Shown piece after piece: positions 2,398-60,476 of a stretch of 60,893 bases of DNA. The notes under the pieces are model-generated. The model had not been told where the DNA came from. It saw only the letters and a program-made list of their open reading frames with translations, and did no database searches. The DNA is from a bacterium (GTDB lineage Bacteria > Patescibacteriota > UBA1384 > VFKW01). The stretch covers positions 1 to 60,893 of the forward strand of contig JAUSIS010000005.1 of assembly GCA_030647355.1 (NCBI GenBank), in the 5' to 3' direction. The position numbers and the translations under genes were made by a program. Position 1 is the first letter of the stretch, and each line of letters starts with the position of its first letter.

Positions 2398-3726
2398 TTA
2401 CCTGGGGGGTTCTATTATTAATTGATGATTAATAATAGCCTCTAAAAGCTTATTCTCGTTAGTTTTGCTATCTTTTCTAGTTAGCTCTTCCATGGATACG
2501 AAATCCGTCGGCCTATAAACTGTCTTGCGGCGATACCCGTGATTTTCTAATTCTTTAAAGATAGGAAAAGATTCTACGCCAACGACTCTATGATCGCCTG
2601 CCACTCGGCTAATTTCTTTTGCCAATCTTTCTATGTAATATCGAGTTTCACTTCTTTGGGTGTCAAAAACAAATTCATCCATTCCATTGATAACCAATGT
2701 TGCTGAATTGTCCGGTTCGTTTCTTAAAAAAGCTAGTATATCGTCTTTGATGGCAATGCAACCGATATTTTCATTTTTTCCTCTTTGATTAACTGGCCAG
2801 CTTGAAAAATTTTTATCAACTCCGATATATTCTTTCGCACCCAGCTTGAGGACTATTTCGGCCATGTCATATGCTCTTGCACCGCACCCTAAATCAATTA
2901 CTTTTTCTCCCTTAAACCATTCTCTAAACCGATGCTCATACCCAGCTCTTTCCGCTTGTACAAACCATTTATTATAATTATCGGGAAAGTCGCCAGACTT
3001 TACCAGATATTGTGAACCCTCTGGCAGTTCGCTATTTGCTTCACCGTCATGAAAATATTTTGAATATCTTTCTCTTAATTCGTCAAAAGTGCTCTGTTGA
3101 ATCTCCTCCTCTTTTTCTTGACCAATTTTTCTATCGTCACCTTTAGCCACTATACCGCGATTGAGATTTAATAAATTATTCAAAATCCTGACCGCTAAAA
3201 CATTTTTTTCTTGCTGAGATTTAATCTGCTCTTGAATTTGAATTATTCTTCTTACTCCCTCATGAGGAAGTCTGCAATCGTGAAATACTGGGAGAATAGC
3301 CGGGGTCATGCTAGGATGACTTAAAATACTATTATTCAAAATAATGCTATCGATCGCTGTTTTTCTTGCTTCTAACAAATCATTCGATTCTTGTTGATTT
3401 AGATAGTTATAATCTTCCTCGGAATATCCATTTTCTTTCAGGAATTCCTGAAAATCTTCAGGTGTCATATCCTCCACAGGAACTTCATAGTAGGGATCGG
3501 GCGGTTGTCCTTCCTTGGGTTCAACGTTAGTAAAAGATGTTAGCTCACCTCGTATTGAAATTTCCGATTGAATCCTTTCAAATAATTGGCGCTCTTCCGG
3601 TGTCATGCTATCTATTGATGCTTGCCATTCCTCAGGTGTTACTTCACCCTTACTTTGACGACTGTCATCACTTTCCATTTCCGATTCTTCAGGTTTGGCT
3701 TTATCACTTGTTGATTCATCAAACAT
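2398..3726 (-). CDS. hypothetical protein with acidic N-terminal region and C-terminal class I SAM-dependent methyltransferase-like domain
   Basis: 442 aa. VIDLGCGARAYDMAEIVLKLGAKEYIGVDKN resembles SAM-binding motif I. Confidence 0.5.
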   Translation of the reverse strand: MFDESTSDKAKPEESEMESDDSRQSKGEVTPEEWQASIDSMTPEERQLFERIQSEISIRGELTSFTNVEPKEGQPPDPYYEVPVEDMTPEDFQEFLKENGYSEEDYNYLNQQESNDLLEARKTAIDSIILNNSILSHPSMTPAILPVFHDCRLPHEGVRRIIQIQEQIKSQQEKNVLAVRILNNLLNLNRGIVAKGDDRKIGQEKEEEIQQSTFDELRERYSKYFHDGEANSELPEGSQYLVKSGDFPDNYNKWFVQAERAGYEHRFREWFKGEKVIDLGCGARAYDMAEIVLKLGAKEYIGVDKNFSSWPVNQRGKNENIGCIAIKDDILAFLRNEPDNSATLVINGMDEFVFDTQRSETRYYIERLAKEISRVAGDHRVVGVESFPIFKELENHGYRRKTVYRPTDFVSMEELTRKDSKTNENKLLEAIINHQLIIEPPR

Positions 3727-3877
3727 AATTATTCCTCATTGCTTACTTTCATTATACACGAAAACTCTTCGTCATACTGAACTTTTTGCAAAGTTTCCCG
3801 ACTTAACCCCTTACTTAAGACCATCTCTTTCGTCGTGAGATAAAAACTTGGTTCTTCTTGAGAATGAATTTTGCCTT

Positions 3878-3953
3878 TGGCGCCCTTGGCAGGAATCGAA
3901 CCTGCAACCTTTCCCTTAGGACGGGACTGCTCTATCCGTTGAGCTACAAGGGC
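3878..3953 (-). tRNA. tRNA-Arg (anticodon CCT), CCA encoded
   Basis: Hand-folded cloverleaf: acceptor GCCCTTG/CAAGGGC, T arm GCAGG-TTCGATT-CCTGC, anticodon loop GTCCTAA. Confidence 0.8.
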
Positions 3954-4071
3954 AAATCTAAAGTATGCGATTGCATTATAACAGATTAATATGGTATAAT
4001 CAAACCAAATTCGCAAAACCAAAGATGGTATTCATGAGACTATATAAATAACATACCACGCACCTTGTTAA

Positions 4072-4144
4072 CGGGGAATGGCCTAATTGGTAAGGCGCAC
4101 GATTCGGGTTCGTGAGACTCCGGATTCGAGTTCCGGTTCCCCGA
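4072..4144 (+). tRNA. tRNA-Pro (anticodon CGG)
   Basis: Acceptor CGGGGAA/TTCCCCG, anticodon arm CACGA-TTCGGGT-TCGTG with G37, T arm CCGGA-TTCGAGT-TCCGG. Confidence 0.85.
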
Positions 4145-4199
4145 CTATATTTAATCTACCCAATTTTCTCAACTCTAATTTTTTCAATGAATCATTTAA

Positions 4200-5453
4200 T
4201 TACCACTGAAAACTTGGTTTCTTCTTTTCGTTTTTTTGCCCGCGCGGTCTTCTGATTAATCGAACTAAAAAGTAGATAACCAGTAATATCAAAGCAGTGC
4301 CGCCAACCAAAATCGCATCGCGTCCATATTTTTGTAACAGAGTTTTTTGAGCAACTACAGTTTTTTTCGCGTCTTTATCTGACAGGATAACAATACTCCC
4401 ACCATTTCGTTGTTCAATTTCAAATCGAACCTCATCGCTTATCGGAGTTAATATTTTATCTTTTTGCGCTTGCACGGTTAGCAAATGAAAACCGGATGCA
4501 ATTGGAAAATCAATGAGCAGACGAAATTGCCCTGTTTTTTTATCGCTTACTACCGAAAGACTCTTACCTTCGGGAATAGTCGGTAGGGGAGTAATATTAA
4601 TATTAGCGATATAACCTGGTTTTGTTATACCTCTAATAACTAAACCCGTAACCGTTCCGTCCTTAACATTATTAGTGAATTTTACTGCTTTGGTGATAGT
4701 AATTTTATATGGCTTGGCTAAACTTTTGTCTAACTTCGCTTTAACTCCAATCTTAAAATGTGTCGCTGGACCCCAGCCATCGCCATTTTGTGCTCTGATA
4801 TGGAAGTAATAGGTCCCGAGATTCTGATCGGGATAAGTAGCTGTAGTATCTGCCGAAGTCACTTGTTGGGGGGGAGTAGTGTCAGCCACTTGATCCAATA
4901 AATAAGCAAAACCAGTGACACCGCTTCCTTTTTCCCAAGATAAAACTATTGTCGAAATGTCATAACTAATAGTTTGGTCCGGATGCGACGAAGATGTTAC
5001 TGTCACAGGACCCGGCATAACAGGAGCCCGCAAGATTGTAAAACTGGTTCCGCCCGCTCCCGACCCAACAACTGAACCGTTAGAAGCCAACTGTACACCG
5101 GAAACAGAAACACTGCCGCTTCCGGCTTGAGTCCCCTTTAAGGTGATGGTCGCAATTCTAAGCGATGTTTGCGTCGAAGTGGTCATGCCAATAAACTGCG
5201 CACCATTTGAGGGCTGTCTAACCCAAGTTGCGCTACCTGCTCCAAAGGAAACAATACTTACGGGCCCTGATACAGAAATTTTTCCTTGGAATGCGTTAAA
5301 AGAGGCGCCGCTTGCCGTTACATTGATTGTGAAGTTTTGCCCGGCAGTTTTGGTGGTGCCCCCGGAAGCATAAATACCCCCTGCTGCTTTTGCGGGAGTA
5401 TATATTAGTAACCCTAAACATATTGCCAATACCAAACAGACTATGTTTTTCAT
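4200..5453 (-). CDS. secreted surface protein with cohesin-like N-domain, Fn3-like middle region and C-terminal membrane anchor
   Basis: Signal peptide MKNIVCLVLAICLGLLIYTPAKA. A Gly/Ser/Thr-rich beta-sandwich-like region follows. The C-terminus has a TM helix followed by basic residues (RRPRGQKNEKKK). Confidence 0.5.
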   Translation of the reverse strand: MKNIVCLVLAICLGLLIYTPAKAAGGIYASGGTTKTAGQNFTINVTASGASFNAFQGKISVSGPVSIVSFGAGSATWVRQPSNGAQFIGMTTSTQTSLRIATITLKGTQAGSGSVSVSGVQLASNGSVVGSGAGGTSFTILRAPVMPGPVTVTSSSHPDQTISYDISTIVLSWEKGSGVTGFAYLLDQVADTTPPQQVTSADTTATYPDQNLGTYYFHIRAQNGDGWGPATHFKIGVKAKLDKSLAKPYKITITKAVKFTNNVKDGTVTGLVIRGITKPGYIANINITPLPTIPEGKSLSVVSDKKTGQFRLLIDFPIASGFHLLTVQAQKDKILTPISDEVRFEIEQRNGGSIVILSDKDAKKTVVAQKTLLQKYGRDAILVGGTALILLVIYFLVRLIRRPRGQKNEKKKPSFQW

Positions 5454-5461
5454 TTTTCCTC

Positions 5462-6577
5462 CTAATTATTCCAATTTGCGGCTAGAATAGACAAATCTAA
5501 TAGGTCAACTTTTTCATCAACATCCGGGTTGAGATTGGCGAGTTGGACTGACGGCTTGGTTTTATCCCAGTTGGCGGCGAAGATGGAAAGGTCAAGCAGA
5601 TTAACTTTGGTGTCACCATTGATGTCGGCCTGTTTATGGCGAATGATGGTTATTCTTTGATAGCCGCCGCCCGGACAAGGCACGTTGTAGACGGTTGTGC
5701 CGATAGGAACCGGATTGACACTCATTGAGCAGGTAGTCCCGATGACAAGCGATGAAGCATAAGTGCTCATGGTTACTGGAGCTGGTGTGCCGCCGGAACC
5801 GGGAGGAGGAATGTACCAGCCGGCATCAATAAACCACTGGTAAAAGTATTTCCAAAAATTATAGTTACCATTAAAAGCATGAGGAGTGTAACGATAAAGG
5901 GATGCCGTCGCTCTGTTAGTGAATGTAACAGTACTGGTCGCCGGCGGATAATGAGGATATCCCGTCGTATTAGTAACGGTCGTTGTCTGACCGATTTTAT
6001 AGTTGGTTGCCCATGTGCGAGCAGTTTCGGCGCGGTGAAAATTATACCTTAATTGCCACGCACCCCAATCTATCTGTTTGGCAAAACCGGCATATGCAGA
6101 ATTGCAGTTAGTACCTTCTGCGCAACCATACCCCATGGCCTTATTTAATATAGCCGAACCTGGATTGGAGGTACTGGTGATTAAGCTTTGTTCTTTTTGC
6201 AAAGTTATAAGAATGGCCATTGGGTTAATCGTTCCCGTACTTTCATCGACGACTATACCCATCAGCGAACCCCTGGAATCTACTGTGTTACCATGGGCGG
6301 CATCCCAAATTATTCTAGCAGCACTTCGTCCTCCCTCGGAATAACTTTTCAAAAATGAACCCTTACTAACTAAAAAATCTTGAATTTGGGCTTCACTCAT
6401 TGCATTAGTACTGATAAAATTATCGTCACTTACTAAATTATTATAAGCTTGAGTATTAAGATAGGCTGACGAGGAAGTATCGGTTGCCTTGGCTTTCTTA
6501 ATTTCAATAAAATTACTCCCGAAAACCGAAGAAATTGCTACAAATATTAGAATAGTTCTTACTAAAGATTTATTCAA
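5462..6577 (-). CDS. secreted protein with C-terminal dockerin-type repeats (possible cell-wall hydrolase-like N-domain)
   Basis: A signal peptide is present. Two dockerin-like Ca-binding repeats: DINGDTKVNLLDLSIFAANW and NPDVDEKVDLLDLSILAANW. The LQKEQSL segment is reminiscent of wall-lytic domains, but this is weak. Confidence 0.6.
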   Translation of the reverse strand: MNKSLVRTILIFVAISSVFGSNFIEIKKAKATDTSSSAYLNTQAYNNLVSDDNFISTNAMSEAQIQDFLVSKGSFLKSYSEGGRSAARIIWDAAHGNTVDSRGSLMGIVVDESTGTINPMAILITLQKEQSLITSTSNPGSAILNKAMGYGCAEGTNCNSAYAGFAKQIDWGAWQLRYNFHRAETARTWATNYKIGQTTTVTNTTGYPHYPPATSTVTFTNRATASLYRYTPHAFNGNYNFWKYFYQWFIDAGWYIPPPGSGGTPAPVTMSTYASSLVIGTTCSMSVNPVPIGTTVYNVPCPGGGYQRITIIRHKQADINGDTKVNLLDLSIFAANWDKTKPSVQLANLNPDVDEKVDLLDLSILAANWNN

Positions 6578-7221: not shown

Positions 7222-8820
7222 GTGGCTATTCAATCAACAGCAGGACAAAGCGAGCAATTATCGCCTGAAATAGAGGCGCTTTTAACATCATTCGAAACTG
7301 AAGATATTGAGCCGGAGAATCAAGATTCCCCTAAAATCCACATCAATATGGCGACCGGCACGGCGGCCTTAATATATGAAAAAATCAGAAACACTATTGG
7401 CTACCAAGAAGAAAAAACCTTACGCCGACTGGCAATCTCACGTATGCTGGCTCGTAGAGCCGTCTTTGATAAAGGCGAGAAAACTATCGCCACCGGCTTA
7501 ATCTGGGAACTGATCCAATCCGGTTATTTAAAAAACGATCAAGTACCTGAAGAGAAAATTGCTCAAATTGAAAATACTTTAAGACAGTTTTCTGCCCTCG
7601 GAAAATTTCTACCTCCCGCTTGGTCTGAATATTTTTTTGGTATAGTTGGTTGCCAAGTTGAAACTATACTGACTGATTACAACTCCGACGAAGCCCTGGT
7701 AATGGCATTTCACAGTCTAATTTTACGTCAATTCTATCAAGATAAAGAACCGGCAGAACATGAGAAAATAAGTGAGTTATTGTATTACTCTTTAGTCCAA
7801 CTATTTTTCAAACTGGACAAACCAGCCCTACGTCATTACGCCCTCCGATATAAGATACCCGACTGGGAATCTCTAACTTCCGCACAAATACTCGACATGA
7901 AAAATCGTTTAATTAAAGAAATTCAGCAGATCGAGGATAATTTAAAGATTCTACCGGAAAGTCGTTTCCCAAAAATCAGTAAACGCTATTATCCTATATA
8001 TATGGTTTTACAAAAAATCATTCACAAAGATCCCTCTCAACTTCGAGAAATAATTACAAATAAACAAAAATTGGCAGCGAGTATTAAACAAATCGCCTCC
8101 GAATATTTTACAGACACTCTGGCAAAATTGAATCGAAGTATCCTAAAAGCCGTCTTATTTATTTTTACCACCAAAGTTATACTCGGTCTTATTTTTGAAA
8201 TTCCTTACGACCGTTATTATCATGGCCATATCAGCTACGTCCCACTCTTAATAAATATTATTTTCCCGCCTCTGCTAATGTATTTATCTGTCTCAATGAT
8301 TTCAGTACCCGGAGCCAATAATGCTCGCAAAATCATCACAATAGCCAAAAAATTTATCTATAATGAAAAACTAGATGAAAACGAAAAACAAAAATATGGC
8401 TATATTCTAACCAGAAGCAAAACACTTCAAACACTGCTAAATACATATTACGCACTCACATTTATTATGACTTTAATTGGAGTGATTTGGTTGCTTAGAG
8501 TATTAAAATTCAATTTAATCAGTGGTATATTATTCTTTCTCTTCCTATCAATAGTCAGCTTCTTAGCATTTCGTATCCGACGATCGGCGACCGATCTTGT
8601 AGTGGTCGAGGAACGGGAAAATACTTTTGTTACTATTTTAGATTTTCTACTCCTGCCGTTCTTAAAGATTGGCTTCTGGCTCTCCAAAAAATTTGAAAAA
8701 GCTAATATATTGGTTTTGATTTTTGATTTTATACTGGAAGCACCTTTTAAAACTATCTTAGAAGCCATAGAACATTGGATTGCCTTCGTCAGAGAAAAAA
8801 AGGAAGAAATCGTCTCCTAA
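7222..8820 (+). CDS. large multi-pass membrane protein, function unknown
   Basis: The likely start is GTG at 7222, preceded by AAGGAG. A soluble N-terminal half is followed by several TM helices. Confidence 0.6.
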   Translation: MAIQSTAGQSEQLSPEIEALLTSFETEDIEPENQDSPKIHINMATGTAALIYEKIRNTIGYQEEKTLRRLAISRMLARRAVFDKGEKTIATGLIWELIQSGYLKNDQVPEEKIAQIENTLRQFSALGKFLPPAWSEYFFGIVGCQVETILTDYNSDEALVMAFHSLILRQFYQDKEPAEHEKISELLYYSLVQLFFKLDKPALRHYALRYKIPDWESLTSAQILDMKNRLIKEIQQIEDNLKILPESRFPKISKRYYPIYMVLQKIIHKDPSQLREIITNKQKLAASIKQIASEYFTDTLAKLNRSILKAVLFIFTTKVILGLIFEIPYDRYYHGHISYVPLLINIIFPPLLMYLSVSMISVPGANNARKIITIAKKFIYNEKLDENEKQKYGYILTRSKTLQTLLNTYYALTFIMTLIGVIWLLRVLKFNLISGILFFLFLSIVSFLAFRIRRSATDLVVVEERENTFVTILDFLLLPFLKIGFWLSKKFEKANILVLIFDFILEAPFKTILEAIEHWIAFVREKKEEIVS

Positions 8821-49099: not shown

Positions 49100-49149
49100 G
49101 ACTCAAATATATTTAATACTAATAGCAAGCATCTAGCTTGTATTCTTGG

Positions 49150-49222
49150 GGTGAGCGAAGGGAATCGAACCCTCAACCACTTCGGCCACAGCGAAGCGCT
49201 CTGCCATTGAGCTACGCCCACC
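49150..49222 (-). tRNA. tRNA-His (anticodon GTG) with genome-encoded G-1
   Basis: Acceptor GTGGGCG/CGCTCAC with an extra 5' G opposite C73. The anticodon loop is CTGTGGC. Confidence 0.85.
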
Positions 49223-50477: not shown

Positions 50478-51221
50478 ATGCTATCACAATCACCAGCATA
50501 CAAAAGGCACATGCAAAACCTGCAAAATGAAATTGATGCCAAAAATTTACATGAACTGCAAAAACTCGATCTTTTTAATGAAAAAACTTTTTATCGCGCT
50601 TTTATCCGGGACATACTTGAAGCAAAGAAAGAGATAGTTATTTACAGCCCCTTTGTGACTAAATTCAGATCTGAATTTTTCAGGAAAACATTAGAAACGC
50701 TTAAAAGAAGAAATATCGCTCTCTTTATATTTACCCGTCCGCTTGAAGAGCACGAATACTTAATGAGAGCTGAAATTAAATGCGCCTTAAAAGATTATGA
50801 GGAGATGGGAGCTTGTATTTTCTATCTCCAAGGGTCGATTCATGAAAAAGTGGCTATCATTGATAGAGCAATTCTTTGGGAAGGAAGTTTAAATATTCTT
50901 TCGCAAAGGGAAAGTAAGGAAATGATGAAAAGAATGGCCAACGAAGATATGGCTATGCAAGTCATGTCTTATCTTGGGTTAAACGAAAAACTGGCCGAAG
51001 GTTACAAATTCCAATATGAGAGGTTGTATAGAAGCTTAGTTGAGAATTCAAGATTTAATTTTAAAGTCAAAATTAAGGAATTTCTTACAGAAATTGCAGT
51101 TCCAAAATTGGCCAAGATACCATTCATTGTATCAAGGGCTATAATATCCTTATTCCAAGGGATTATGGTAATTATAAAATTGATAATCTTATTATCTATC
51201 AAACTTCTAACTAGATTTTGA
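50478..51221 (+). CDS. PLD-like (single HKD motif) nuclease/phosphodiesterase family protein with C-terminal TM helix
   Basis: HEKVAIIDRAILWEGSLN (HxK..D...GS.N) is present. The C-terminus is a hydrophobic helix. An RBS (GAGGAGG) lies upstream. Confidence 0.65.
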   Translation: MLSQSPAYKRHMQNLQNEIDAKNLHELQKLDLFNEKTFYRAFIRDILEAKKEIVIYSPFVTKFRSEFFRKTLETLKRRNIALFIFTRPLEEHEYLMRAEIKCALKDYEEMGACIFYLQGSIHEKVAIIDRAILWEGSLNILSQRESKEMMKRMANEDMAMQVMSYLGLNEKLAEGYKFQYERLYRSLVENSRFNFKVKIKEFLTEIAVPKLAKIPFIVSRAIISLFQGIMVIIKLIILLSIKLLTRF

Positions 51222-51426
51222 GATCTTTGATTTTTAGAGCCTTCTTAACTTTCTGCAGTTTTTCAACCGAAGGGTTTACTTCGCCCCGCTCCATTTGAGC
51301 ATAATAGTTAGTGCTAACATCGGATGCTTCGGCAACTTCTAATTGAGTTAAGTTAGCTTTTTCTCGAGCTTTTCTTAACTGATTGCCAAGATCTGTCAGT
51401 TTTATGTTTTCTTTATTGTTTGTCAT
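51211..51426 (-). CDS. XRE-family HTH transcriptional regulator
   Basis: LGNQLRKAREKANLTQLEVAEASDVSTNYYAQMERGEVNPS. Confidence 0.8.
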   Translation of the reverse strand: MTNNKENIKLTDLGNQLRKAREKANLTQLEVAEASDVSTNYYAQMERGEVNPSVEKLQKVKKALKIKDLKI

Positions 51427-51619
51427 GTTTTTTTGACTCCAAAACAGCAAGGAGCTGTTTTAGCCATTCTTCCTTGCCAAGCTCGTCTATCAATCGCGAG
51501 TTAACTTCGATCCATTTTTCTTTGGTAACCATTAGTTCATGTTTGGATATAAGATCGGGCGATATGTTGATTGCATAATATGGGTTAATAAATAACTCTT
51601 TAGTTTCTTGTTTGTTCAT
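51413..51619 (-). CDS. small hypothetical protein overlapping the XRE gene (possible toxin or partner)
   Basis: 68 aa. It overlaps the downstream HTH gene by 14 nt. Confidence 0.4.
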   Translation of the reverse strand: MNKQETKELFINPYYAINISPDLISKHELMVTKEKWIEVNSRLIDELGKEEWLKQLLAVLESKKHDKQ

Positions 51620-51762: not shown

Positions 51763-53751
51763 ATGAGCGATGCATATTTTGGAAATAAATCGGTTGCTAT
51801 CTATCAAAGACGATACTTAGGTTCTAAAACTAAGTTACTTGATTTCGTAGAAAGTATTTTGGAATCTGAGAAAATATCATTTAAATCTTTTGCCGACATC
51901 TTCGCTGGAACTGGTTCTGTTGCAAATCGTTTCTACGGAAAAGCAAATATCGTAGTAAATGATATTTTAGATTCTAACCACTATATCTTCAAAGCGTTTT
52001 TTGGCGATGAAAAAATCAGAGAAGAAAAATTACTTGTTAGGTTAAAAACCTACAACAATCTGGATATAAATAAATATGGCAAAAATTATTTTTCTGAAAA
52101 CTTCTCAAACACATATTTTGATGCAAAAAATGCTAAAAAAATTGGAGTGATTAGAGATGATATTGAAAAACTATTTGAGGAGAAAATAATTAACGAACGA
52201 GAAAAATCATATCTCTTAACCTCTCTAATCTATGCTCTTGATAAAATCGCTAATACTGTCGGTCATTACGATGCTTATAGGAAAATAGAAATTAATGATA
52301 AAAAATTGTTTTTATTGCCATTAGATCTTCCACATTCAAAGTATCACGCAGAAATCTATAAAGATGATGCAAATAATCTCGTAAAGCATATCAAGGCAGA
52401 TGTCGTTTATATTGACCCACCTTATAATTCACGGCAATACTCAGATGCTTATCATTTACTTGAAAACATTGCCACTTGGAAAAAAGAAGAAGTTTTTGGT
52501 GTTGCCAAAAAAATTGACCGCTCACATATCAAGAGTCAATACAGTATGAAATCGGCTGCGATAGCATTCGGTGATTTAATTGACAGTATCAACGCAAAAT
52601 ATATTCTTGTTTCTTATAACGATATGGGGTCATCTGGAAATGGACGCTCTCAGTCAAAAATTAGCGACCACGAGATATTATCTGCCTTAAAACGAAAAGG
52701 CGAAGTTAAAATCTTTTACAAAGATTTTAAGCAATTCACAACCGGCAAATCCTGCAAAGATGATCTAAAAGAAAGAATCTTTTTATGTAAAGTAGCGAAT
52801 AATATAAAGACAAAGAAATCTGTTATCGCTTCAAAGCAAAATCCAGTTCAAAGCGGTTTTGTGAAATCACCATTGAATTACACTGGTGGTAAGCACAAAC
52901 TATTACCACAAATAACAAATTATTTTCCAAACGAAATAAAGACCTTCTACGATGTTTTTTCAGGCGGAGCAAATGTCGGCATAAATGCAAAAGCAGAAAA
53001 TATAATTTGCATTGAAAAAAATAAATATGTAGTCAATTTATTAAAATTTATTCAAGGTAATAATTTTGAAGATCTTAATCAGAAAATCTTGGATATTATT
53101 GACGAGTTTAATTTAAGCCAAAGTTACATCAAGGGCTATGATTATTATGGTGCCGAAAGTTGTATTGGACTTGGAAAATATAACAAAGATAAATTCTTGG
53201 CACTAAGAAGTGAGTTCAATAAAGATAAATCAAGAATTGATCAATTATTGGTGCTTATTTTATATTCTTTCAATAACCAAATTCGTTTTAACTCTAACGG
53301 TGATTATAACTTACCTGTCGGGAAACGCGATTATAATGGCAGTTCAAGAAAAAATGTTTTAGCATTTAACCAAATCTCGAACGAGAAGAAAATAAACTTT
53401 AAGATCTCCGATTTCAGAAATCTTGAAAAAATGAATTTGAATGAAAATGATTTCTTCTATTTAGACCCTCCATATCTTTTGGGACTTGCCAGTTATAATG
53501 AATTGGGTGGCTGGACGGAGCAAGATGAAAACGATTTATATTCTCTACTCTCACGACTAAATAAGAAGAAGATTAAATTCGCATTATCAAATGTTTTAGA
53601 GCATAAGGGCGAAACAAATGAAATAATGAAAAAATGGGCTGTAAAAAATAATTTTAAGATAAATAAACTGAACTATAGTTATAAAAATTCAAATTATCAC
53701 TCTTCTGCAAAAAACAATCAGACCATTGAAGTCCTGATTACAAACTACTGA
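51763..53751 (+). CDS. fused double N6-adenine DNA methyltransferase (two Dam/D12-class domains)
   Basis: Domain 1: RYLGSKTKL, FAGTGSV, IDPPY. Domain 2: NYTGGKHKL, FSGGANV, LDPPY. Confidence 0.85.
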   Translation: MSDAYFGNKSVAIYQRRYLGSKTKLLDFVESILESEKISFKSFADIFAGTGSVANRFYGKANIVVNDILDSNHYIFKAFFGDEKIREEKLLVRLKTYNNLDINKYGKNYFSENFSNTYFDAKNAKKIGVIRDDIEKLFEEKIINEREKSYLLTSLIYALDKIANTVGHYDAYRKIEINDKKLFLLPLDLPHSKYHAEIYKDDANNLVKHIKADVVYIDPPYNSRQYSDAYHLLENIATWKKEEVFGVAKKIDRSHIKSQYSMKSAAIAFGDLIDSINAKYILVSYNDMGSSGNGRSQSKISDHEILSALKRKGEVKIFYKDFKQFTTGKSCKDDLKERIFLCKVANNIKTKKSVIASKQNPVQSGFVKSPLNYTGGKHKLLPQITNYFPNEIKTFYDVFSGGANVGINAKAENIICIEKNKYVVNLLKFIQGNNFEDLNQKILDIIDEFNLSQSYIKGYDYYGAESCIGLGKYNKDKFLALRSEFNKDKSRIDQLLVLILYSFNNQIRFNSNGDYNLPVGKRDYNGSSRKNVLAFNQISNEKKINFKISDFRNLEKMNLNENDFFYLDPPYLLGLASYNELGGWTEQDENDLYSLLSRLNKKKIKFALSNVLEHKGETNEIMKKWAVKNNFKINKLNYSYKNSNYHSSAKNNQTIEVLITNY

Positions 53752-53771: not shown

Positions 53772-55583
53772 ATGTTAAAAGCTTGGTCAATTACTACAAC
53801 TGTGCGAAATCCTGAGAGACTTCGTGATTTTTTGATCGCCCTGAAACCACTTGTAAATCAAGAGTGGGACAACAACAATCAAAAAAATTATCAGAAACTT
53901 CTTATCAAATATCGGCTGTATGGTTATGGAAACCAGCAATTTTATAGTGGTTTGCCAACCGAAATTGTTAAATTGATAAATAATATTGATTCTGAGATAT
54001 CAGATGAAATTGTTGATAAAATCATTGAAGTTAAAAATTATAAAGACTTCGCTATGCGAGGTCGCCAATCAATAAATCCGCTTACAAAATTTGGGTTTGC
54101 TCTAATAGACGACGGTATCCTGAGGATTACTGACCTTGGTCAAAAACTTATAGAAAGCGAAAAAGATTCTGGAGATGCCTTCCTTAAATCATTTATCAAG
54201 TGGCAAATACCGAATCCTGCAAATAAGGACTTTCCCGAAAACGAGAAGTATAACATCGTGCCATTTGTCGCTACATTGAAGTTAATTGACGAAGTTAATA
54301 AAATTGAAACTGCGAGAAATCAAAACGCAAAAGGTTTGAGCAAACGAGAGTTTTCTTTATTCGCCCCCTCCTTAATTGATTTTAACGATATTGAGAAATA
54401 CGCAGAAGAAATTGTTAATTTACGAGATTCACAAGTTGATAAAACCAAACAAGAACGAAAAGAAATTAGAGATCGTTATAGATTCAAGTTTGCAAGATCA
54501 TTTTTAGATACCACAGACCAAATTGAGATTGATAAGTTTTTGAAAAACTTAAAAGATTATGGCGACAATGCGATAAGATATTTTCGTCTAACGAAATTCA
54601 TAAGAATTCGTGGTGGCGGTTTTTATGTAGATTTAGAGCCAAACCGTCATATTGAAATAAGTTCATTGTTTGAAAATGAATTTTATAAACCAAAAGCCTT
54701 TGCCGATAAATCAGATTACTTGCAATATATGTCGGATGATACACTACCACAATTACCTTGGCTAACAAAGAAAAAATTAACTGATATCGTAAATAACATT
54801 TACGAAGAAATCGTTTCTCTGGAAAACGAACTCAATAAAGGAATAGCTCCACAAGAAGATGTCACAAATTACAACGAAAATCAGTTAGTTATTTATATCG
54901 AAAACTTGCGAAATTATCGCAAAGACCTGCAAGAACAAGATAACCATATTAAATCGCAGCCAGTAGAAGCAATCAACGGATGTATCTCACAGTTAGACAA
55001 GATTTTTGAATTAGAAAATCGTCCATTAATGTTAGAATATTTATCATCAATGGGCTTGCACGCACTAAACGATGCAAGAGAGATTAAGCCAAATTACCCA
55101 GTCGGTGATGATAATGAGCCAACATCGACTGCCTCAGGCGGTTTAGCCGATATAGAATGTTATTACAGTGATTTCAATATGATATGCGAGGTAACAATGT
55201 TAAATAGTCGTGACCAATGGTTTAACGAAGGGCAACCAGTTATGAGGCACTTGCGAGATTTTGAGAATCAAAACACAAACGCTCATTGTCTATTTATTGC
55301 CCCGACGATACATACGGACACAGCAGAAACATTTTGGATTGCTAACATACATGGGTACAAGGGAAGTACGCAAAGTATTGCCCCGATTACAATCAAACAA
55401 TTTATTGGTCTACTAAAAACGCTAAAAACACTTCGTGAATCTGGCAAAAACTTCACACACGACAATTTGCTGAAATTAGTTAAAACAATTTCCAATAGTG
55501 CGAGTGTAAAAGCAGATTCAGATAATTGGGTCAATAATATCCAAAACATTATAAATGCGTGGAGCGTGGAATTAATGAGATAA
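53772..55583 (+). CDS. type IIS restriction endonuclease, AlwI-family-like
   Basis: The N-terminal WSITTTVRNPERLRDF and RGRQSINPLTKFGFALIDDGILRITDLG resemble the AlwI/PleI/MlyI/N.BstNBI family as I recall it. It is adjacent to a two-domain methylase, as expected for an asymmetric recognition site. Confidence 0.55.
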   Translation: MLKAWSITTTVRNPERLRDFLIALKPLVNQEWDNNNQKNYQKLLIKYRLYGYGNQQFYSGLPTEIVKLINNIDSEISDEIVDKIIEVKNYKDFAMRGRQSINPLTKFGFALIDDGILRITDLGQKLIESEKDSGDAFLKSFIKWQIPNPANKDFPENEKYNIVPFVATLKLIDEVNKIETARNQNAKGLSKREFSLFAPSLIDFNDIEKYAEEIVNLRDSQVDKTKQERKEIRDRYRFKFARSFLDTTDQIEIDKFLKNLKDYGDNAIRYFRLTKFIRIRGGGFYVDLEPNRHIEISSLFENEFYKPKAFADKSDYLQYMSDDTLPQLPWLTKKKLTDIVNNIYEEIVSLENELNKGIAPQEDVTNYNENQLVIYIENLRNYRKDLQEQDNHIKSQPVEAINGCISQLDKIFELENRPLMLEYLSSMGLHALNDAREIKPNYPVGDDNEPTSTASGGLADIECYYSDFNMICEVTMLNSRDQWFNEGQPVMRHLRDFENQNTNAHCLFIAPTIHTDTAETFWIANIHGYKGSTQSIAPITIKQFIGLLKTLKTLRESGKNFTHDNLLKLVKTISNSASVKADSDNWVNNIQNIINAWSVELMR

Positions 55584-55663
55584 AATTATGAGTGATGAAA
55601 TTGATATGTATTTCAATCGATTTAATAGGAAATAAAAATCGTCGAAAATAAAAAAAGAAAGAT

Positions 55664-56269
55664 GTGATGAATGATACCGAACAACTAAAGGATGAGATTT
55701 ATGATTATATACTTTTTAGTCAGGCACTTTGTAAGAAAGCGAAAGATATAATTAACAATATAAATGTGAATGATCCACGAGAGATTAAAAACAAACTCGA
55801 TTATGCCAACAACACCAATATTTATTTTCTTAAACTTGTTGCGAATTTATTTATTAGCCAATGCATAATTGAATTAGGGACTTTGCTGGACAAAAAAGAT
55901 GCAAGACAAAAATCCCTTTATCAGCTGATCACAGTGGATGAATATAAAACAAAACCTAAAATAATTGATTATTTGAACCAAATACATTCTAATTTCGGTG
56001 CCAAAAGACTATGGGCAATTAGACATCAGTTTGTTGCCCATCATTCAAAAAACAGCAAGGGTGGTCCGACATCGATCATTTTTAGCACATACAAGGGTGA
56101 ATATATTCAAAGTTGCGAAGACATTATTGAAGAAATAATAAATTTTTGGAAGGAACATATAGGATATGGTCCGGGTAACAACATGTTTATCGATAAGCTC
56201 GAATCCGTTGACGGCATTGCTGACCAACTTATCAAAACTGCCAAAAACCCGAGGGAGTCAAGAAATTGA
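55664..56269 (+). CDS. HEPN-domain protein (AbiU2-like), Rx5H motif IRHQFVAH
   Basis: 201 aa. It is predicted all-alpha, with an R-x5-H motif in the C-terminal half. Confidence 0.55.
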   Translation: MMNDTEQLKDEIYDYILFSQALCKKAKDIINNINVNDPREIKNKLDYANNTNIYFLKLVANLFISQCIIELGTLLDKKDARQKSLYQLITVDEYKTKPKIIDYLNQIHSNFGAKRLWAIRHQFVAHHSKNSKGGPTSIIFSTYKGEYIQSCEDIIEEIINFWKEHIGYGPGNNMFIDKLESVDGIADQLIKTAKNPRESRN

Positions 56270-56943
56270 ATAAAAACGACATAGTTAATGAGATTACGAC
56301 GAGAGTAGATTTCGCAATAGCGGACTCTAATACATATTTATACGCAAAATGTCAGCCAACATTGGAAGCCGATATGAATCAAGTTTCAATTGGTGGCGGT
56401 AATTTTAACATCTTACTTGCGTCAGTTTCCGTGCTTGACCTTCTCGCACAGGTTAATGCGTTGGTAGATGGAACTGAAGCAGACTTTTGGCAAGCTAAAG
56501 AATTGTTACAGATTAAAGAAGAGCGAAAAAAGATAACTAAAAAATTTCAAAGATATTTTAATGTCCCCAAAATTGGAGATTTCAAAAACACAGGCAAGGA
56601 AAGATTTCTTAAACTATTATCTCAAACAGCATCACTAACAGGCTTAACAACCGAGCAAGCCAAAGAAATATACGAGATTAGAAATAAAATTGTACATTGT
56701 TTTAGCCCAAAAATCAGACCTGCGGCGGCCTTACCAATAATGCCAGGCCGTGATTTTGCATCGTTAATTAAATCATATATTTCAATACCAGTTTTTTGCC
56801 AAACTACAGACAATAGAACGGGTATAGATTCTAATGCTTTAAGTCATAAATTAGGGGTCATTTCTCTATATGTTATTCGTAAAATTGAAAAATCTACGGA
56901 TGATAAAATTTCTCAAATAGCCCAATGGTTCGAAAATAATTAA
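56266..56943 (+). CDS. HEPN-domain protein, Rx4H motif IRNKIVH
   Basis: 225 aa. Its TTG start overlaps the upstream stop codon (TTGA), which suggests translational coupling. Confidence 0.55.
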   Translation: MNKNDIVNEITTRVDFAIADSNTYLYAKCQPTLEADMNQVSIGGGNFNILLASVSVLDLLAQVNALVDGTEADFWQAKELLQIKEERKKITKKFQRYFNVPKIGDFKNTGKERFLKLLSQTASLTGLTTEQAKEIYEIRNKIVHCFSPKIRPAAALPIMPGRDFASLIKSYISIPVFCQTTDNRTGIDSNALSHKLGVISLYVIRKIEKSTDDKISQIAQWFENN

Positions 56944-56969
56944 ATAAAAATCGTCGAGGAGTTGGTAAA

Positions 56970-57215
56970 ATGAGTAAAGATCAGACGGTTAAAAAAGAAG
57001 ATGATACCATTTATCGCCATGAACGAGATGTTCTTAAGAAATTTTTAGTTGATGAACATTGTAATTACTCTGAAACAGGCGCTAAATTAGAATTTACCCA
57101 TAATTTAAGAAATTCGGTAGAAAAATTAAATAAATCTACCTCATTACAAAACTGGATCATGATAGTTCTCACGATTGTTTTAATAACACTAACTATAATA
57201 TTATTATCGAAATAA
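56970..57215 (+). CDS. small tail-anchored membrane protein
   Basis: 81 aa. C-terminal TM helix WIMIVLTIVLITLTIILL. An RBS (GAGGAG) lies upstream. Confidence 0.6.
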   Translation: MSKDQTVKKEDDTIYRHERDVLKKFLVDEHCNYSETGAKLEFTHNLRNSVEKLNKSTSLQNWIMIVLTIVLITLTIILLSK

Positions 57216-57238
57216 AAATCATCAAGATTTAAGAATAT

Positions 57239-57517
57239 ATGAAAATAAAATCTTTGAAATATGTATTAGGAGAATTGGTATTTTACATTATATTTTGGCT
57301 GGTTGGAGTCGGACTTTTTTGGGGGTTAATTCTGCTTTGTCAGGAAAAGTTTCATTACAGTGTCGATTGGCAATTAGCGTTAATATGGTCTATTGTTCCT
57401 GGTTATATTTGGTTTATTATCGGGACACTTTTAACATGGAAGGATGACAAGATTGCCGAGGGTCGTAAGGCTATAACTGACGCTGTAGCAAAATTGTTTA
57501 GAGAAAAACCACTTTAA
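57239..57517 (+). CDS. small two-TM membrane protein
   Basis: 92 aa with two hydrophobic helices. Confidence 0.55.
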   Translation: MKIKSLKYVLGELVFYIIFWLVGVGLFWGLILLCQEKFHYSVDWQLALIWSIVPGYIWFIIGTLLTWKDDKIAEGRKAITDAVAKLFREKPL

Positions 57518-57528
57518 TACTACTCCAC

Positions 57529-57744
57529 TTAATTTTCATTTAAATCAAAATTGATCGTTTTGTTGACTACTTTAATTCTTCCCTCATCTTCAAGCGCTTT
57601 ATAGGCGTCTTGGAAGGAAATACGTTTGTCTTTCGTCAGTTTAATTAATGCGTGATAGAGTGTTAGCGGAACCTCAAAACCATCGGCTTTCATTTTTTTA
57701 TACCACTCGCTAGTTGTTTCAAATTTATTTGTATCCATATCCAC
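57529..57744 (-). CDS. small hypothetical protein downstream of the Ubl operon
   Basis: 71 aa, helical, no recognised motif. Confidence 0.4.
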   Translation of the reverse strand: MDMDTNKFETTSEWYKKMKADGFEVPLTLYHALIKLTKDKRISFQDAYKALEDEGRIKVVNKTINFDLNEN

Positions 57745-57855: not shown

Positions 57856-58239
57856 TTATCTTTTGAACCATCTGATTACTTTTGACCAATAGCTATCTTT
57901 TTTCTTGGCATAGTATCTCTCTTTATTTAAGAGGTCTTGGCGCCTACCGGCTTCGATTTCAATATCGGACCATTTCTTGGCCCAAACCATCTGATTGTTC
58001 CTTATCCAATAGTGTGATTGGCATTTGAAGTTCCAATTCCCAATCGAAGGTGAAAGAGAAATAGTTTTGCCATCAAAGGCTAACTGCCAATCTGTCGGCG
58101 AAAAGGGTGTTATAACTTCTTCTTGACAACCACAAAAACACTTGTGAATCGCCGTACTGTATTTCAGAGATATATAAATGACATCATCGTCTAGTTGTCT
58201 TGGTATCTGCTCTACAAATTTATGAGTTATAATCTTCAT
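57856..58239 (-). CDS. Cys/His zinc-finger protein (DUF6527-like)
   Basis: HKCFCGC...FKCQSHYW (CxCxC + CxxH). It overlaps the E1 gene by 20 nt. Confidence 0.6.
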   Translation of the reverse strand: MKIITHKFVEQIPRQLDDDVIYISLKYSTAIHKCFCGCQEEVITPFSPTDWQLAFDGKTISLSPSIGNWNFKCQSHYWIRNNQMVWAKKWSDIEIEAGRRQDLLNKERYYAKKKDSYWSKVIRWFKR

Positions 58240-59401
58240 TGAATAATTTTCCGTCGTTCATTGAATATATTGTATTAAACTCCTTGGAACGATCTTGATA
58301 AAAACCAGATATTTTTTTCCATTTCATCACGGATAGTGTTGCACTTAGAGCATTAATATCGGCTATCTGAATGTTTGTCACATAATCATCTGCGGCCGTT
58401 TTCTCTGCAAAGGATATCCTCTTATTAATGTGATCTCTTTTGTCTGCAGTGCTTGAAGTAACCCTGACATGACCCAGGATAGAATCGTTTGCTGTTAATA
58501 ATCCGATACCAGCATCAACAAAAGATATTTGTTTTGCAATTAAGTGATTAATAATTTGTCTCTTAGCCGTACCTTTATCCATAGCGATAAACACAAAACT
58601 CATTCCAGACAATTCGTCAATCTTTTCAGCGGTTATATTATAGCTATGAGAATGTATATTCTTGTGCATATTTGCGTAAATGCTTTGGAAATAATCAGTT
58701 TTTTTATTTACTTCGGTTAGCTTCTCAGCAGGTGGAGCGCCGGGCGATCTGAAGGCATTGTGATTCAATAGAACGTCTTCATCAAACAAGTGGATTTCTT
58801 GTATGGGAGTTTTCGCGATCAGGTCTAATATATACGAGCCAGTTCCACCTAGACCAACAATAGCTACTTTTTGCCCCTCCAGTTTCTTCGTTATCGCGTT
58901 TATCTTACCCCTACTAATATTAGTATCTGGATAGTTGAAAACAGAACCACTATCAGGGATATTAATATCCTTAAATGGTTTCTCAGTAACGGATTTATTT
59001 AAAGCCCTAGCTTCCGCCGATATTATATTGGCGTAGTTAGACATTTTATGGGAGTAGTCTTTATATCCTTCAGCGGGTTTGTTAGAGAAGGAGTGGTTAA
59101 TGATTATACCTCCCATTTGCGTATCTTGGCTTCCGCTGTGGATTCCTTTTATGGGACTTCCGTCCTTATAACAAGGCAGTTCGCCTGCCCAATAAGCCAC
59201 ATGTTGGCTTATTGGGCTATTCGTATTATCTCCGGCAATTGAGGTTAAATCCGAGACTAATGTTCCATATTGAATCTGACAGCTTGAATCTACATATGGT
59301 ATTTCATAAAGCAGGAGACAATCTTCAACGATTGCCACCGCATAACCTTCGTCCATTAACCGCTTAAGGTCTGGATTACGATTTATCTGTTCTTGTGGCA
59401 T
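58220..59401 (-). CDS. ThiF/E1-like adenylyltransferase fused to an N-terminal E2(UBC)-like domain
   Basis: Rossmann motif VAIVGLGGTGSYILD, plus FDEDVLLNHNAFRSPG. There is no Cys in the adenylation domain. The N-domain has HVAYWAGELPC, with the same H-to-C spacing (+10) as HPN....G.IC in UBC folds. Confidence 0.7.
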   Translation of the reverse strand: MPQEQINRNPDLKRLMDEGYAVAIVEDCLLLYEIPYVDSSCQIQYGTLVSDLTSIAGDNTNSPISQHVAYWAGELPCYKDGSPIKGIHSGSQDTQMGGIIINHSFSNKPAEGYKDYSHKMSNYANIISAEARALNKSVTEKPFKDINIPDSGSVFNYPDTNISRGKINAITKKLEGQKVAIVGLGGTGSYILDLIAKTPIQEIHLFDEDVLLNHNAFRSPGAPPAEKLTEVNKKTDYFQSIYANMHKNIHSHSYNITAEKIDELSGMSFVFIAMDKGTAKRQIINHLIAKQISFVDAGIGLLTANDSILGHVRVTSSTADKRDHINKRISFAEKTAADDYVTNIQIADINALSATLSVMKWKKISGFYQDRSKEFNTIYSMNDGKLFNEDYNS

Positions 59402-59651
59402 TGAAGATCATTTCCTTTTTAACTTTCACCTCGTCGCCCTTTACCATTGTACCCTCATCCGGATTATCTCCCTTACTGTAGGATACCGTGTAGACAATAT
59501 TTTCATTGTCTTCATAGGTGCCGAAAGCGAGTTCGATTACCTGCTGAAAAGTAATTCTTTTACCAGTGAATTGCTCTTCTCTTCCGTTTACGATAATCGT
59601 GACGGGTTTTTCGTTACCTTGTCCTTCGTGTTTGTCTTCTTGGTTGGCCAT
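59376..59651 (-). CDS. ubiquitin-like beta-grasp protein (Multiubiquitin-family, single domain)
   Basis: VTIIVNGREEQFTGKRITFQQVIELAFG...YTVSYSKG...MVKGDEVKVKKEMIFNATRTDKS matches the multiubiquitin-domain pattern. The start ATG has an AAGGAG RBS. It overlaps the E1 gene by 26 nt. Confidence 0.65.
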   Translation of the reverse strand: MANQEDKHEGQGNEKPVTIIVNGREEQFTGKRITFQQVIELAFGTYEDNENIVYTVSYSKGDNPDEGTMVKGDEVKVKKEMIFNATRTDKS

Positions 59652-59685
59652 AATAGCTCCTTTCATAATGTTTATCGCTCACTAA

Positions 59686-60306
59686 CTAATCTAGAATCGG
59701 CGGAAGCACCTCGACCACTACTCCCTGGATTCTAAAATCTCTTGTTAAGACTATTGGTTTATGTTCCTTATTCGTTGAACGGGGTAAAAGGATATAAGCT
59801 CTCGGCGTTATAAATAACTCTTTTATAGTTGCTTCATCATCTATTAAGGCTACAACTCTTTCACCACTACGGGCTGTTTCCTGTTGCCGGATTAAAACAA
59901 AATCCCCGTCATTTATTCCGCTTAAATTCATTGAGTCGCCATGTGCCTTAAGCATAAAGTATTTATACGGTGGATGGGCAATTTTGCTGGAAACAGGTAT
60001 CAAGGCTTCAATATTCTCAACTGCCAAAACCGGAGCACCACAAGCCACACTTCCGACCAAAGGAATGTTTATAGTTGCGGTTCTGTCTTTTTCTTCAAAA
60101 TTATCAGTTACTTGGAGCGATCCGTTGGCTTTTTTCTTAACGAATCCTTTTTTTATAAGGCTTTCAATAGTTAGGGCGGCAGATCTGGGGGAACTATACC
60201 CCAGTGCCTTCATTAATTGTCGCACCGAAGGAGAAGTACCATTTTGTAAAATAGCATTTCTAATTTCTTTTAGGGCTAAAATTTCTTTTGGGTTTAATAT
60301 GTTCAT
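59686..60306 (-). CDS. lexA: LexA-like S24 peptidase repressor
   Basis: N-terminal wHTH (SPSVRQLMKALGYSSPRSAALTIESLIKKG). Cleavage-site region VACGAP. Catalytic GDSM Ser and IKEL Lys. The start is taken at MNILNPKE. Confidence 0.85.
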   Translation of the reverse strand: MNILNPKEILALKEIRNAILQNGTSPSVRQLMKALGYSSPRSAALTIESLIKKGFVKKKANGSLQVTDNFEEKDRTATINIPLVGSVACGAPVLAVENIEALIPVSSKIAHPPYKYFMLKAHGDSMNLSGINDGDFVLIRQQETARSGERVVALIDDEATIKELFITPRAYILLPRSTNKEHKPIVLTRDFRIQGVVVEVLPPILD

Positions 60307-60367
60307 ACATACACTATAATACACTAAACATACAGTTGTCAATACCTTGCTAAAAATATACTTGTTT

Positions 60368-60476
60368 CCTCCCGCCAGTCTTCCCATCTTATAATTGTAT
60401 AGCAATTTCGGAATTTCCAAAGGAAATATAATTGCATGGCAATTTCGGAATTTTCGAAGAAAATATAGAACAAATA
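60368..60476. repeat. dispersed repeat R, copy 3 (with internal duplication of the aattgcaWWgcaatttcggaattt module)
   Basis: It matches R1 end to end, apart from a 39-nt internal duplication. It lies 60-170 nt upstream of the lexA-like gene. Confidence 0.85.

Follow-up and report, generated by a model that had tools for sequence, protein, structure and literature searches.

In the 60,893-nucleotide (nt) contig JAUSIS010000005.1 of assembly GCA_030647355.1 (the window, that is, the whole stretch of DNA analyzed), four co-directional open reading frames (ORF1–ORF4) follow a restriction–modification (R-M) system. We propose, with a probability of roughly 0.55, that they belong to two independent modules: Module A (~55664–56943), in which ORF1 and ORF2 would form a two-gene accessory unit of restriction systems encoding a pair of HEPN-like proteins, and Module B (56942–57517), in which ORF3 and ORF4 would encode small membrane proteins that travel with an unstructured 16-nt junction motif. 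The ORF1–ORF2 pair is probably a back-up antiviral module beside the R-M system.

The ORF1–ORF2 pair and its restriction linkage

We compared the window with L001, the sole other locus with both ORF1 and ORF2, and found that positions 55679–56949 align to L001 1480–2768 with 78.8% DNA identity. The homology covers exactly the two genes with no flank and stops at 56949, inside the second copy of the motif. At L001 the pair adjoins a Type ISP enzyme instead of an AlwI system, and a 20-nt spacer takes the place of the overlap between the genes. Because the exact two-gene block recurs beside a different restriction enzyme, we take ORF1 and ORF2, as judged by sequence comparison, to be a two-gene unit.

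The gene layout is as described in the original prediction, which had noted four co-directional ORFs, a mini-ORF, a TTGA overlap and an Rx4-6H string in each of the first two proteins. ORF1 (55664–56269) encodes 201 amino acids (aa) from a GTG codon, or 200 aa from an ATG at 55667, the latter form being the version in the protein database; ORF2 (56266–56943) encodes 225 aa from a TTG codon. The ORF1 stop and the ORF2 start overlap in the TTGA at 56266–56269, a GAGGGAG Shine–Dalgarno sequence is located ~10 nt 5' of the TTG, and the ORF2 N-terminus is in line with the starts of its relatives in the family alignment. The 15-codon mini-ORF (55588–55635, forward strand), read from the sequence, has its stop codon inside the first motif copy; we found no homologue of it, and it is not present in L001. 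A scan for sigma-70 promoters and intrinsic terminators returned nothing above background, and since no terminator-like site was found on the forward strand between the R-M genes and the ORF1–ORF2 pair, the two are probably co-transcribed.

Relatives of ORF1 are found with three kinds of partner. The window and L001 have ORF2, L002 has a 432-aa protein, and L004–L008 have a 201–203-aa family with the motif RHSLTH, so that two of the three partner families carry an Rx4H string (RNKIVH and RHSLTH). A 4-nt overlap joins the ORF1-family gene to that of its partner in the window, in L002 and in L004–L008. Gene order varies, the ORF1 family coming first in the window, L001 and L002 and second in L004–L008, where the RHSLTH gene is placed upstream. 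When aligned using hhalign, the RHSLTH and ORF2 families match with an E value of 0.026 and with their motifs in register, and the RHSLTH and ORF1 families return nothing.

We regard ORF1 as a divergent AbiU2-family HEPN protein, a membership accepted by transitivity via P0002. This relative, 79% identical to ORF1, scores 27.4 bits against Pfam HEPN_AbiU2 (PF18734) over profile positions 11–173 of 193, above the cut-off. HEPN_AbiU2 is matched by seven of the nine family members, and no other family is matched consistently. The family is very small, with only 8 relatives of ORF1 among 5.8 billion protein clusters and none in GTDB species genomes, IMG/VR or PLSDB plasmids. The string IRHQFVAH spans residues 119–126 (Rx5H, R120–H126); R120 and H126 are invariant in 9/9 sequences, residue 121 is H or N, and ORF1 therefore shows the superfamily hallmark (PMC3710099), an Rx4-6H motif in which the R is followed by a polar N, D or H. 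Upstream of Rx5H, E70 and D76 are also invariant in the alignment of nine sequences. The AlphaFold2 model of ORF1 is all-alpha, with a predicted local distance difference test score (pLDDT) of 80. A profile search of the family alignment against PDB sequences gave spurious matches only, and PADLOC returned no match for ORF1.

ORF2 probably represents a new HEPN-like family that bears the sequence hallmarks of the superfamily, and not its profile or fold matches. Its relatives number 29 by exhaustive search of 1.84 billion representatives and 1 by word-indexed search; only 2 GTDB species genomes carry the family, and no viral contig (IMG/VR) or plasmid (PLSDB) carries a member. With both families absent from IMG/VR and PLSDB, neither looks phage- or plasmid-borne. 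Across 25 sequences, with identity down to 19%, the invariant columns are M1, D20, G43-G44-G45-N46, R139 and H144. The string IRNKIVH corresponds to residues 138–144 (R139–H144, RNxxxH), with N or H as residue 140 in nearly all of the 25 sequences; ORF2 thus also has a canonical HEPN-type Rx4-6H motif with a polar residue following the R, and D20 is an acidic residue upstream of it. When members were scanned singly, the sub-threshold Pfam matches were HEPN_Apea (4), HEPN_RiboL-PSP (2), HEPN_Swt1 (1) and DUF3644 (1), the last being the EC042_2821 HEPN family in the 2013 HEPN survey (PMC3710099). No Pfam family outside HEPN is matched by two or more members, and the motif helix is covered by all of the HEPN-family matches. 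PADLOC matched ORF2 weakly to DzbB (E 9e-5; residues 60–144, profile positions 224–305 of 341) and, over the same stretch, to Cas13a (E 0.008), with DzbB matched by only 2 of the 25 members. The AlphaFold2 model, of very high confidence (pLDDT 93), is mostly alpha with one small beta-hairpin, and the family alignment, searched as a profile against PDB sequences, gave spurious matches only and nothing relevant. The ORF2 family is not covered by Pfam, NCBIfam, PHROGs or PADLOC, and its D20 plus GGGN signature matches no family.

Members of both families are neighbours of restriction systems almost wherever the flanking genes could be read, which bears out the defence context suggested earlier. 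Every ORF1-family locus directly adjoins such a system: AlwI, Type ISP, type III (N6_N4 methylase and ResIII), GmrSD, or Bsp6I with a C5 methylase. Relatives of ORF2 are placed between hsdM and hsdS, with start codons that overlap (L015–L017), precede an Eco57I-type methylase and a ResIII protein (L010), lie ~2 kb from an hsdM gene (L014), are joined to an HsdS C-terminal fragment (L012) or adjoin RhuM (L009, L011). According to the 2013 survey, no fewer than 16 HEPN clades occur in R-M neighbourhoods and are proposed to serve as a second line of defence, like PrrC with EcoprrI (PMC3710099). The restriction linkage of both families agrees with this generalisation and fits a defence role.

Several of these loci have features of their own. 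The L012 protein (P0014, 246–1253) combines an ORF2-family protein in one frame with ~84 N-terminal residues that match HsdS models, and is either a true HsdS-fragment fusion or the product of read-through where hsdS ends. Further genes of HEPN type cluster with ORF1 relatives: in L004 the pair is immediately followed by a gene for a 407-aa protein (3853–5076) with a C-terminal RNKIVH, and in L002 an AbiV-family HEPN gene (8181–8630) lies two genes downstream, between two GmrSD_N-domain genes. The place held by ORF3 and ORF4 in the window is occupied in L001 by a 415-aa protein (2798–4045) without a Pfam match, the end of which resembles, by eye, a PD-(D/E)xK nuclease motif (D-ILI...E-C-K). 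Finally, L004 (780–2336), L007 (1420–2979) and L008 (1051–2607) encode, all on the reverse strand, 518–519-aa fusion proteins in which a LexA DNA-binding domain and an S24 self-cleaving peptidase are combined with a C5 cytosine DNA methyltransferase, and which adjoin a Bsp6I-type restriction enzyme and the RHSLTH/AbiU2-like pair. These methylases might be inactivated or released by RecA-stimulated autocleavage, which would be an unusual form of R-M control.

ORF3, ORF4 and the 16-nt motif

ORF3 (56970–57215, forward strand) encodes an 81-aa tail-anchored protein with a single C-terminal hydrophobic segment (residues 62–80), and ORF4 (57239–57517, forward strand) a 92-aa protein with two hydrophobic, transmembrane segments (13–31 and 46–64), in agreement with the membrane topologies originally read from the sequence. 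NCBIfam and PHROG scans of all four proteins returned nothing.

The motif AAATAAAAATCRTCRA occurs exactly three times in the window, and all copies are in this cassette; because shuffled sequences give an expectation of 0.02, the recurrence is not due to chance. Copy 1 (AAATAAAAATCGTCGA, 55630–55645) lies 18–21 nt 5' of the ORF1 start. Copy 2 (likewise AAATAAAAATCGTCGA, 56942–56957) overlaps the ORF2 stop; the ORF3 ribosome-binding site, GGAG, comes directly 3' of it. Copy 3 (AAATAAAAATCATCAA, 57210–57225) overlaps the ORF3 stop and lies 13 nt 5' of the ORF4 start. All three are on the forward strand, 9–21 nt 5' of the next start codon, and the TAA of each is the stop codon of the ORF before it. 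The original prediction was right about three copies that each begin at a preceding stop, and placed the third one position too far downstream (57211–57226). It had also put a copy before each cistron, which holds for ORF1, ORF3 and ORF4 and not for ORF2, the start of which lies inside ORF1.

Outside the window, the membrane genes and the motif occur apart from the HEPN genes. L001 lacks ORF3, ORF4 and the motif, and the ORF4 homologues P0040 and P0041 (68–70% identical) are encoded in loci without HEPN genes (L018 and L021). The combined ORF3/ORF4 homologue search returned ORF4 relatives only; an uncalled ORF3 homologue is nevertheless present in L018 (4303–4548; 34% identity, BLASTP E 9e-12), 1.45 kb upstream of the ORF4 homologue, and is bracketed by the motif as ORF3 is in the window. 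This 11.6-kb locus has no HEPN gene and five copies of the 11-nt core AAATAAAAATC, all on the gene strand. The copies at 4193, 4275, 4540 and 5463 read AAATAAAAATCAT(C/T)GA, and the copy at 8914 diverges past the core. The motif TAA is the stop of an upstream gene or ORF in 3/5 copies, a start codon follows in 2/5, and some copies flank unrelated genes. Between the window and L018 the motif is identical at 14–15 of 16 positions, compared with 34% for ORF3, and is thus better conserved than the coding sequence that it flanks. The view of the motif as a feature of HEPN genes is contradicted by its absence from L001 and its presence in L018.

We compared the window and L018 copies and found no conserved flanks, and RNA folding of five motif regions gave no shared or unusually stable structure, which disfavours a structured RNA element. 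Exact scans for the 16-nt motif in genome and viral contig collections produced single, scattered matches at chance level with no clustering, which leaves a widespread promoter or a phage-promoter origin unsupported. Based on these observations, the motif is most likely a linear cis-acting expression or junction signal of the ORF3/ORF4 module that is not HEPN-related; a role as a recombination site is conceivable. One copy, together with the mini-ORF, also stands before ORF1, and this placement is not explained by assigning the motif to the ORF3/ORF4 module.

L018 shows three further features. An in-frame TAA stands at codon 3 of its ORF3 homologue (ATG AAT TAA ...), with no canonical start after it, and this homologue may be a pseudogene, contain a sequencing error or have an unusual initiation site. 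Near-identical hairpins resembling repetitive extragenic palindromes (...AAATCCAACCTCGTAGGTTGGATT...) lie on both sides of the ORF4 homologue (5880–6360), and a Y1 transposase (IS200/IS605 or RAYT-type) follows; the flanking hairpins and the transposase suggest that this small membrane gene has been mobilised in L018. Between the motif copy at 4540 and the next gene (4555–4740), CGCGGAAATT occurs four times at a spacing of roughly 40–50 nt.

Proposed mechanism, alternatives and known systems

In HEPN RNases such as HepT, Csm6 and Cas13, two Rx4-6H motifs meet at a dimer interface to create the active site, and it is because of this architecture that we propose a hetero-oligomer of ORF1 and ORF2. 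A heteromeric endoribonuclease is the most plausible outcome, since the two are unrelated proteins, each with an invariant motif, encoded by overlapping cistrons and inherited as one block. The putative complex would act as a metal-independent endoribonuclease and would be silent while the AlwI-type R-M system works. Were restriction bypassed or inhibited, the complex would cleave host or phage RNA and abort the infection, by analogy with PrrC and EcoprrI. The constant position beside restriction enzymes suggests such a guard or back-up role, and the D12-class methyltransferase of the upstream R-M system is probably a functional partner of the pair.

Several observations weigh against Module A as described. 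Foldseek gave nothing significant for the ORF1 model against the PDB (best E 0.26) or for the ORF2 model (best E 0.47 in the PDB and 0.08 in BFVD). HEPN entries 9bj7, 4nqf, 6m6w, 5yep and 7bxo are only weak matches of ORF1, with target-normalised template-modelling scores (TM-scores) of at most 0.43; HEPN toxins and AbiV appear only among the weak matches of ORF2, and HEPN structures among the weak matches overall have TM-scores of 0.2–0.43. ORF1 itself scores 18.1 bits against HEPN_AbiU2 (E 0.0019, profile positions 32–172), below the gathering cut-off of 26.8, and ORF2 has no Pfam, NCBIfam or PHROG match at threshold. The twin-HEPN assignment in the original prediction is supported by the invariant R and H, the helical models and the AbiU2 profile match of ORF1, while the fold is unconfirmed, with no Foldseek match below an E value of 0.08. 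The ORF1 and ORF2 families align by hhalign in the motif helix alone (E 0.11), with no homology otherwise. Pairing is not obligatory, as L003 has an ORF1 relative without a visible partner and L009–L017 have ORF2 relatives without any ORF1 relative, and the sample is tiny, with 6 distinct ORF1 contexts and ~8 ORF2 contexts. The AbiU2 protein of Lactococcus (AbiUii) lowers defence rather than conferring it (PMC13064643), and the ORF1:ORF2 hetero-oligomer is something that we purely infer.

We considered whether the four genes could instead make up one abortive-infection system, in which the HEPN pair would act as sensor or nuclease, the membrane proteins as effectors or anchors, and the motif would coordinate expression. 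The genes are co-directional and tightly packed, with 12–26-nt gaps and no terminator-like site on their strand, the motif connects the ORF1 upstream region with ORF3 and ORF4, and small membrane effectors are, as a matter of general knowledge, common in defence systems; at L001 the sequence right after ORF2 even resembles a degenerate motif. Co-occurrence of the four genes elsewhere, named beforehand as the test on which the four-gene cassette would fall, was nevertheless never found in any database searched. Only the pair is present in L001, and only ORF3/ORF4 homologues in L018 and L021; none of the eight listed ORF2-family loci (0/8) has a small membrane gene beside the ORF2 relative, and the motif borders unrelated genes in L018. 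A single four-gene system is for these reasons hardly tenable.

Two further explanations accept the pair as a unit and change its function. If ORF1 and ORF2 were a toxin–antitoxin or regulator–effector couple that mainly stabilises the restriction island, ORF2 could for example be an RNase toxin restrained by the AbiU2-like ORF1, or ORF1 could modulate the neighbouring restriction nuclease, much as lactococcal AbiUii reduces the activity of the nuclease-like AbiUi (PMC13064643). Start–stop overlaps are typical of toxin–antitoxin pairs, ORF1 relatives have interchangeable partners (the ORF2 family, the RHSLTH family and the 432-aa protein), and ORF2 relatives occur without ORF1 in other loci. 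We find such a couple unlikely, as the invariant R and H in ORF1 suggest catalysis and not pure inhibition, gene order is not fixed, and library scans of the ORF proteins revealed no known antitoxin domain. Alternatively, the proteins might not be RNases at all, and would be helical adaptors or DNA/RNA-binding subunits that modulate restriction enzymes and use the R and H for binding or structure. The lack of a significant fold match to HEPN structures and the uniformly sub-threshold profile matches of ORF2 speak for this, as does the existence of non-catalytic HEPN-like domains (PMC3710099). Such non-catalytic domains, however, typically lose the Rx4-6H motif (PMC3710099), whereas here two unrelated families keep an invariant R and H at the canonical distance and a polar residue next to the R, and one of these families reaches the Pfam AbiU2 threshold through P0002; a non-RNase role is in our estimate very unlikely.

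The restriction-accessory HEPN pair can also be taken further. AbiU2-like proteins might be the universal adaptor half of split heteromeric HEPN RNases, with ORF1 supplying an Rx5H half-site to interchangeable second subunits (the GGGN/RNxxxH family, the RHSLTH family in L004–L008 and others). Such an enzyme would correspond, split over two polypeptides, to the two non-identical HEPN domains of Cas13; it would plug into any restriction system as a guard and fire on restriction failure. Separately, small gene cassettes of candidate-phyla-radiation genomes could be shuffled by way of the 16-nt AAATAAAAATCRTYRA as a junction or recombination signal. We consider this extended proposal speculative and rather doubtful.

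Among the closest known systems is AbiU2 (AbiUii, PF18734) of the Lactococcus lactis AbiU system; the ORF1 family matches the profile over most of its length and shares Rx4-6H. The lactococcal effector AbiUi resembles the FokI restriction nuclease (PMC13064643), and ORF1 follows an AlwI-family endonuclease. The systems differ in host (a Firmicute versus a member of the candidate phyla radiation) and in partner, which here is a second HEPN-like protein. As a candidate, lactococcal AbiU was rejected, with no AbiUi homologue present and no match to the PADLOC AbiU models for ORF1 or ORF2. AbiU2 genes are listed in R-M operons, and a second HEPN family, Bxe_C0808, is given as 'in operon with AbiU2' (Anantharaman et al. 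2013, PMC3710099, Table 1, in a single table line without a mechanism or experiment). These operons likewise combine an AbiU2-family HEPN protein with a distinct HEPN family that keeps the catalytic motif, a likeness by description only, and the earlier statement that the combination matches no named system was thus overstated.

The PrrC/EcoprrI (type Ic) system likewise has a HEPN RNase gene inside or beside an R-M operon, comparable to the ORF2 relatives between hsdM and hsdS, and PrrC, an anticodon nuclease, is modelled as a latent RNase that is released when restriction is neutralised (PMC3710099). PrrC has an N-terminal ABC-ATPase regulatory domain, which ORF1 and ORF2 lack, and the R-M system here is type II. 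A PrrC/RloC-type nuclease was rejected, as no ATPase domain match was found in ORF1 (201 aa) or ORF2 (225 aa), and the analogy is functional only. ApeA, EC042_2821/DUF3644, AbiJ and other small R-M-embedded HEPN families share the genomic logic and the protein size; the matches of ORF2 relatives to ApeA/DUF3644-type families are all below threshold, and D20 plus GGGN is the signature of the ORF2 family. Cas13 and Csm6/Csx1 build an active site from two Rx4-6H motifs, in Cas13 from two non-identical HEPN domains, whereas here the motifs are on separate small proteins with no CRISPR or cyclic-oligoadenylate components, so that the likeness concerns the inferred mechanism only.

The ORF2 match to DzbB (residues 60–144) falls in the C-terminal part of the profile, which recalls Dazbog (DzbA, with DUF262, and DzbB), and the ORF1 relative in L002 is flanked by genes for GmrSD_N (PF03235), which we take to be the DUF262 domain. 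Dazbog was rejected for the window, where the DzbB match is partial (~80 residues) and no DzbA/DUF262 gene lies beside the pair. A HEPN–MNT toxin–antitoxin system was likewise rejected, as neither the four proteins nor those encoded next to them have a nucleotidyltransferase domain.

In 2013, restriction-linked HEPN RNases were predicted to be a widespread second defence line (PMC3710099). We view the pair as a known theme, restriction-linked HEPN proteins, with a new partner family, and not as a new principle, the genomic logic and the superfamily being established. The locus offers a compact, exactly delimited 1.3-kb two-gene module that recurs beside a different restriction enzyme. To our knowledge, almost none of the restriction-linked HEPN RNases apart from PrrC has been tested. 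A heteromeric nuclease, if confirmed, would be a natural split-HEPN enzyme and would help to account for the odd position of AbiU2 in Lactococcus, whose defence effector is another protein. The locus also extends what little has been described of antiviral systems in the candidate phyla radiation.

Genomic setting and neighbouring genes

The window is chromosomal, as indicated by an RNase P RNA gene and eight tRNA genes, and belongs to a host of the candidate phyla radiation (Patescibacteria); its UvrA shares 60–63% identity with UvrA proteins from metagenome-assembled Saccharibacteria, Berkelbacteria and Patescibacteria genomes. Past tRNA-His (49147–49221) the G+C content falls from ~40% to 31–35%, and a defence island appears to start just beyond this gene. 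The island comprises, in order, PLD-like, helix-turn-helix (HTH) and double D12-class methylase genes, an AlwI-family endonuclease gene and the four ORFs, after which come a Bub operon and a LexA-like gene, both on the opposite strand. The first island genes encode a 247-aa PLD-like protein (PLDc_2; 50478–51221), the C-terminal tail of which is hydrophobic, and, on the strand opposite to it, an HTH_3-type regulator (51211–51450) and a 68-aa ORF (51413–51619). The R-M system itself is on the forward strand and consists of a double D12-class N6-adenine DNA methyltransferase (51763–53751; Pfam MethyltransfD12 at 6.4e-58 in two stretches, PADLOC MTase_II at 7.5e-168) and an AlwI-family type II restriction or nicking endonuclease (53772–55583; Pfam RE_AlwI at 3.7e-85, PADLOC REase_II at 2.2e-123), the gene of which is the immediate upstream neighbour of the ORF1–ORF2 pair.

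On the far side of the cassette, a 71-aa ORF (57529–57744) is convergent with ORF4, the stop codons being 11 nt apart. It is followed on the reverse strand (57856–59666) by a bacterial ubiquitination-like operon of Type II Bub (6E/DUF6527), which is complete and encodes a Multi_ubiq ubiquitin-like protein (59376–59666), a DUF6791–ThiF E2–E1 fusion (58220–59401) and a DUF6527 BubE serine protease (57856–58239). Directly upstream of this operon, also on the reverse strand, lies a gene for a 244-aa LexA-like protein (59686–60420), assigned by eye from its helix-turn-helix and S24-peptidase-like sequence, which may place the Bub operon under SOS-type control.

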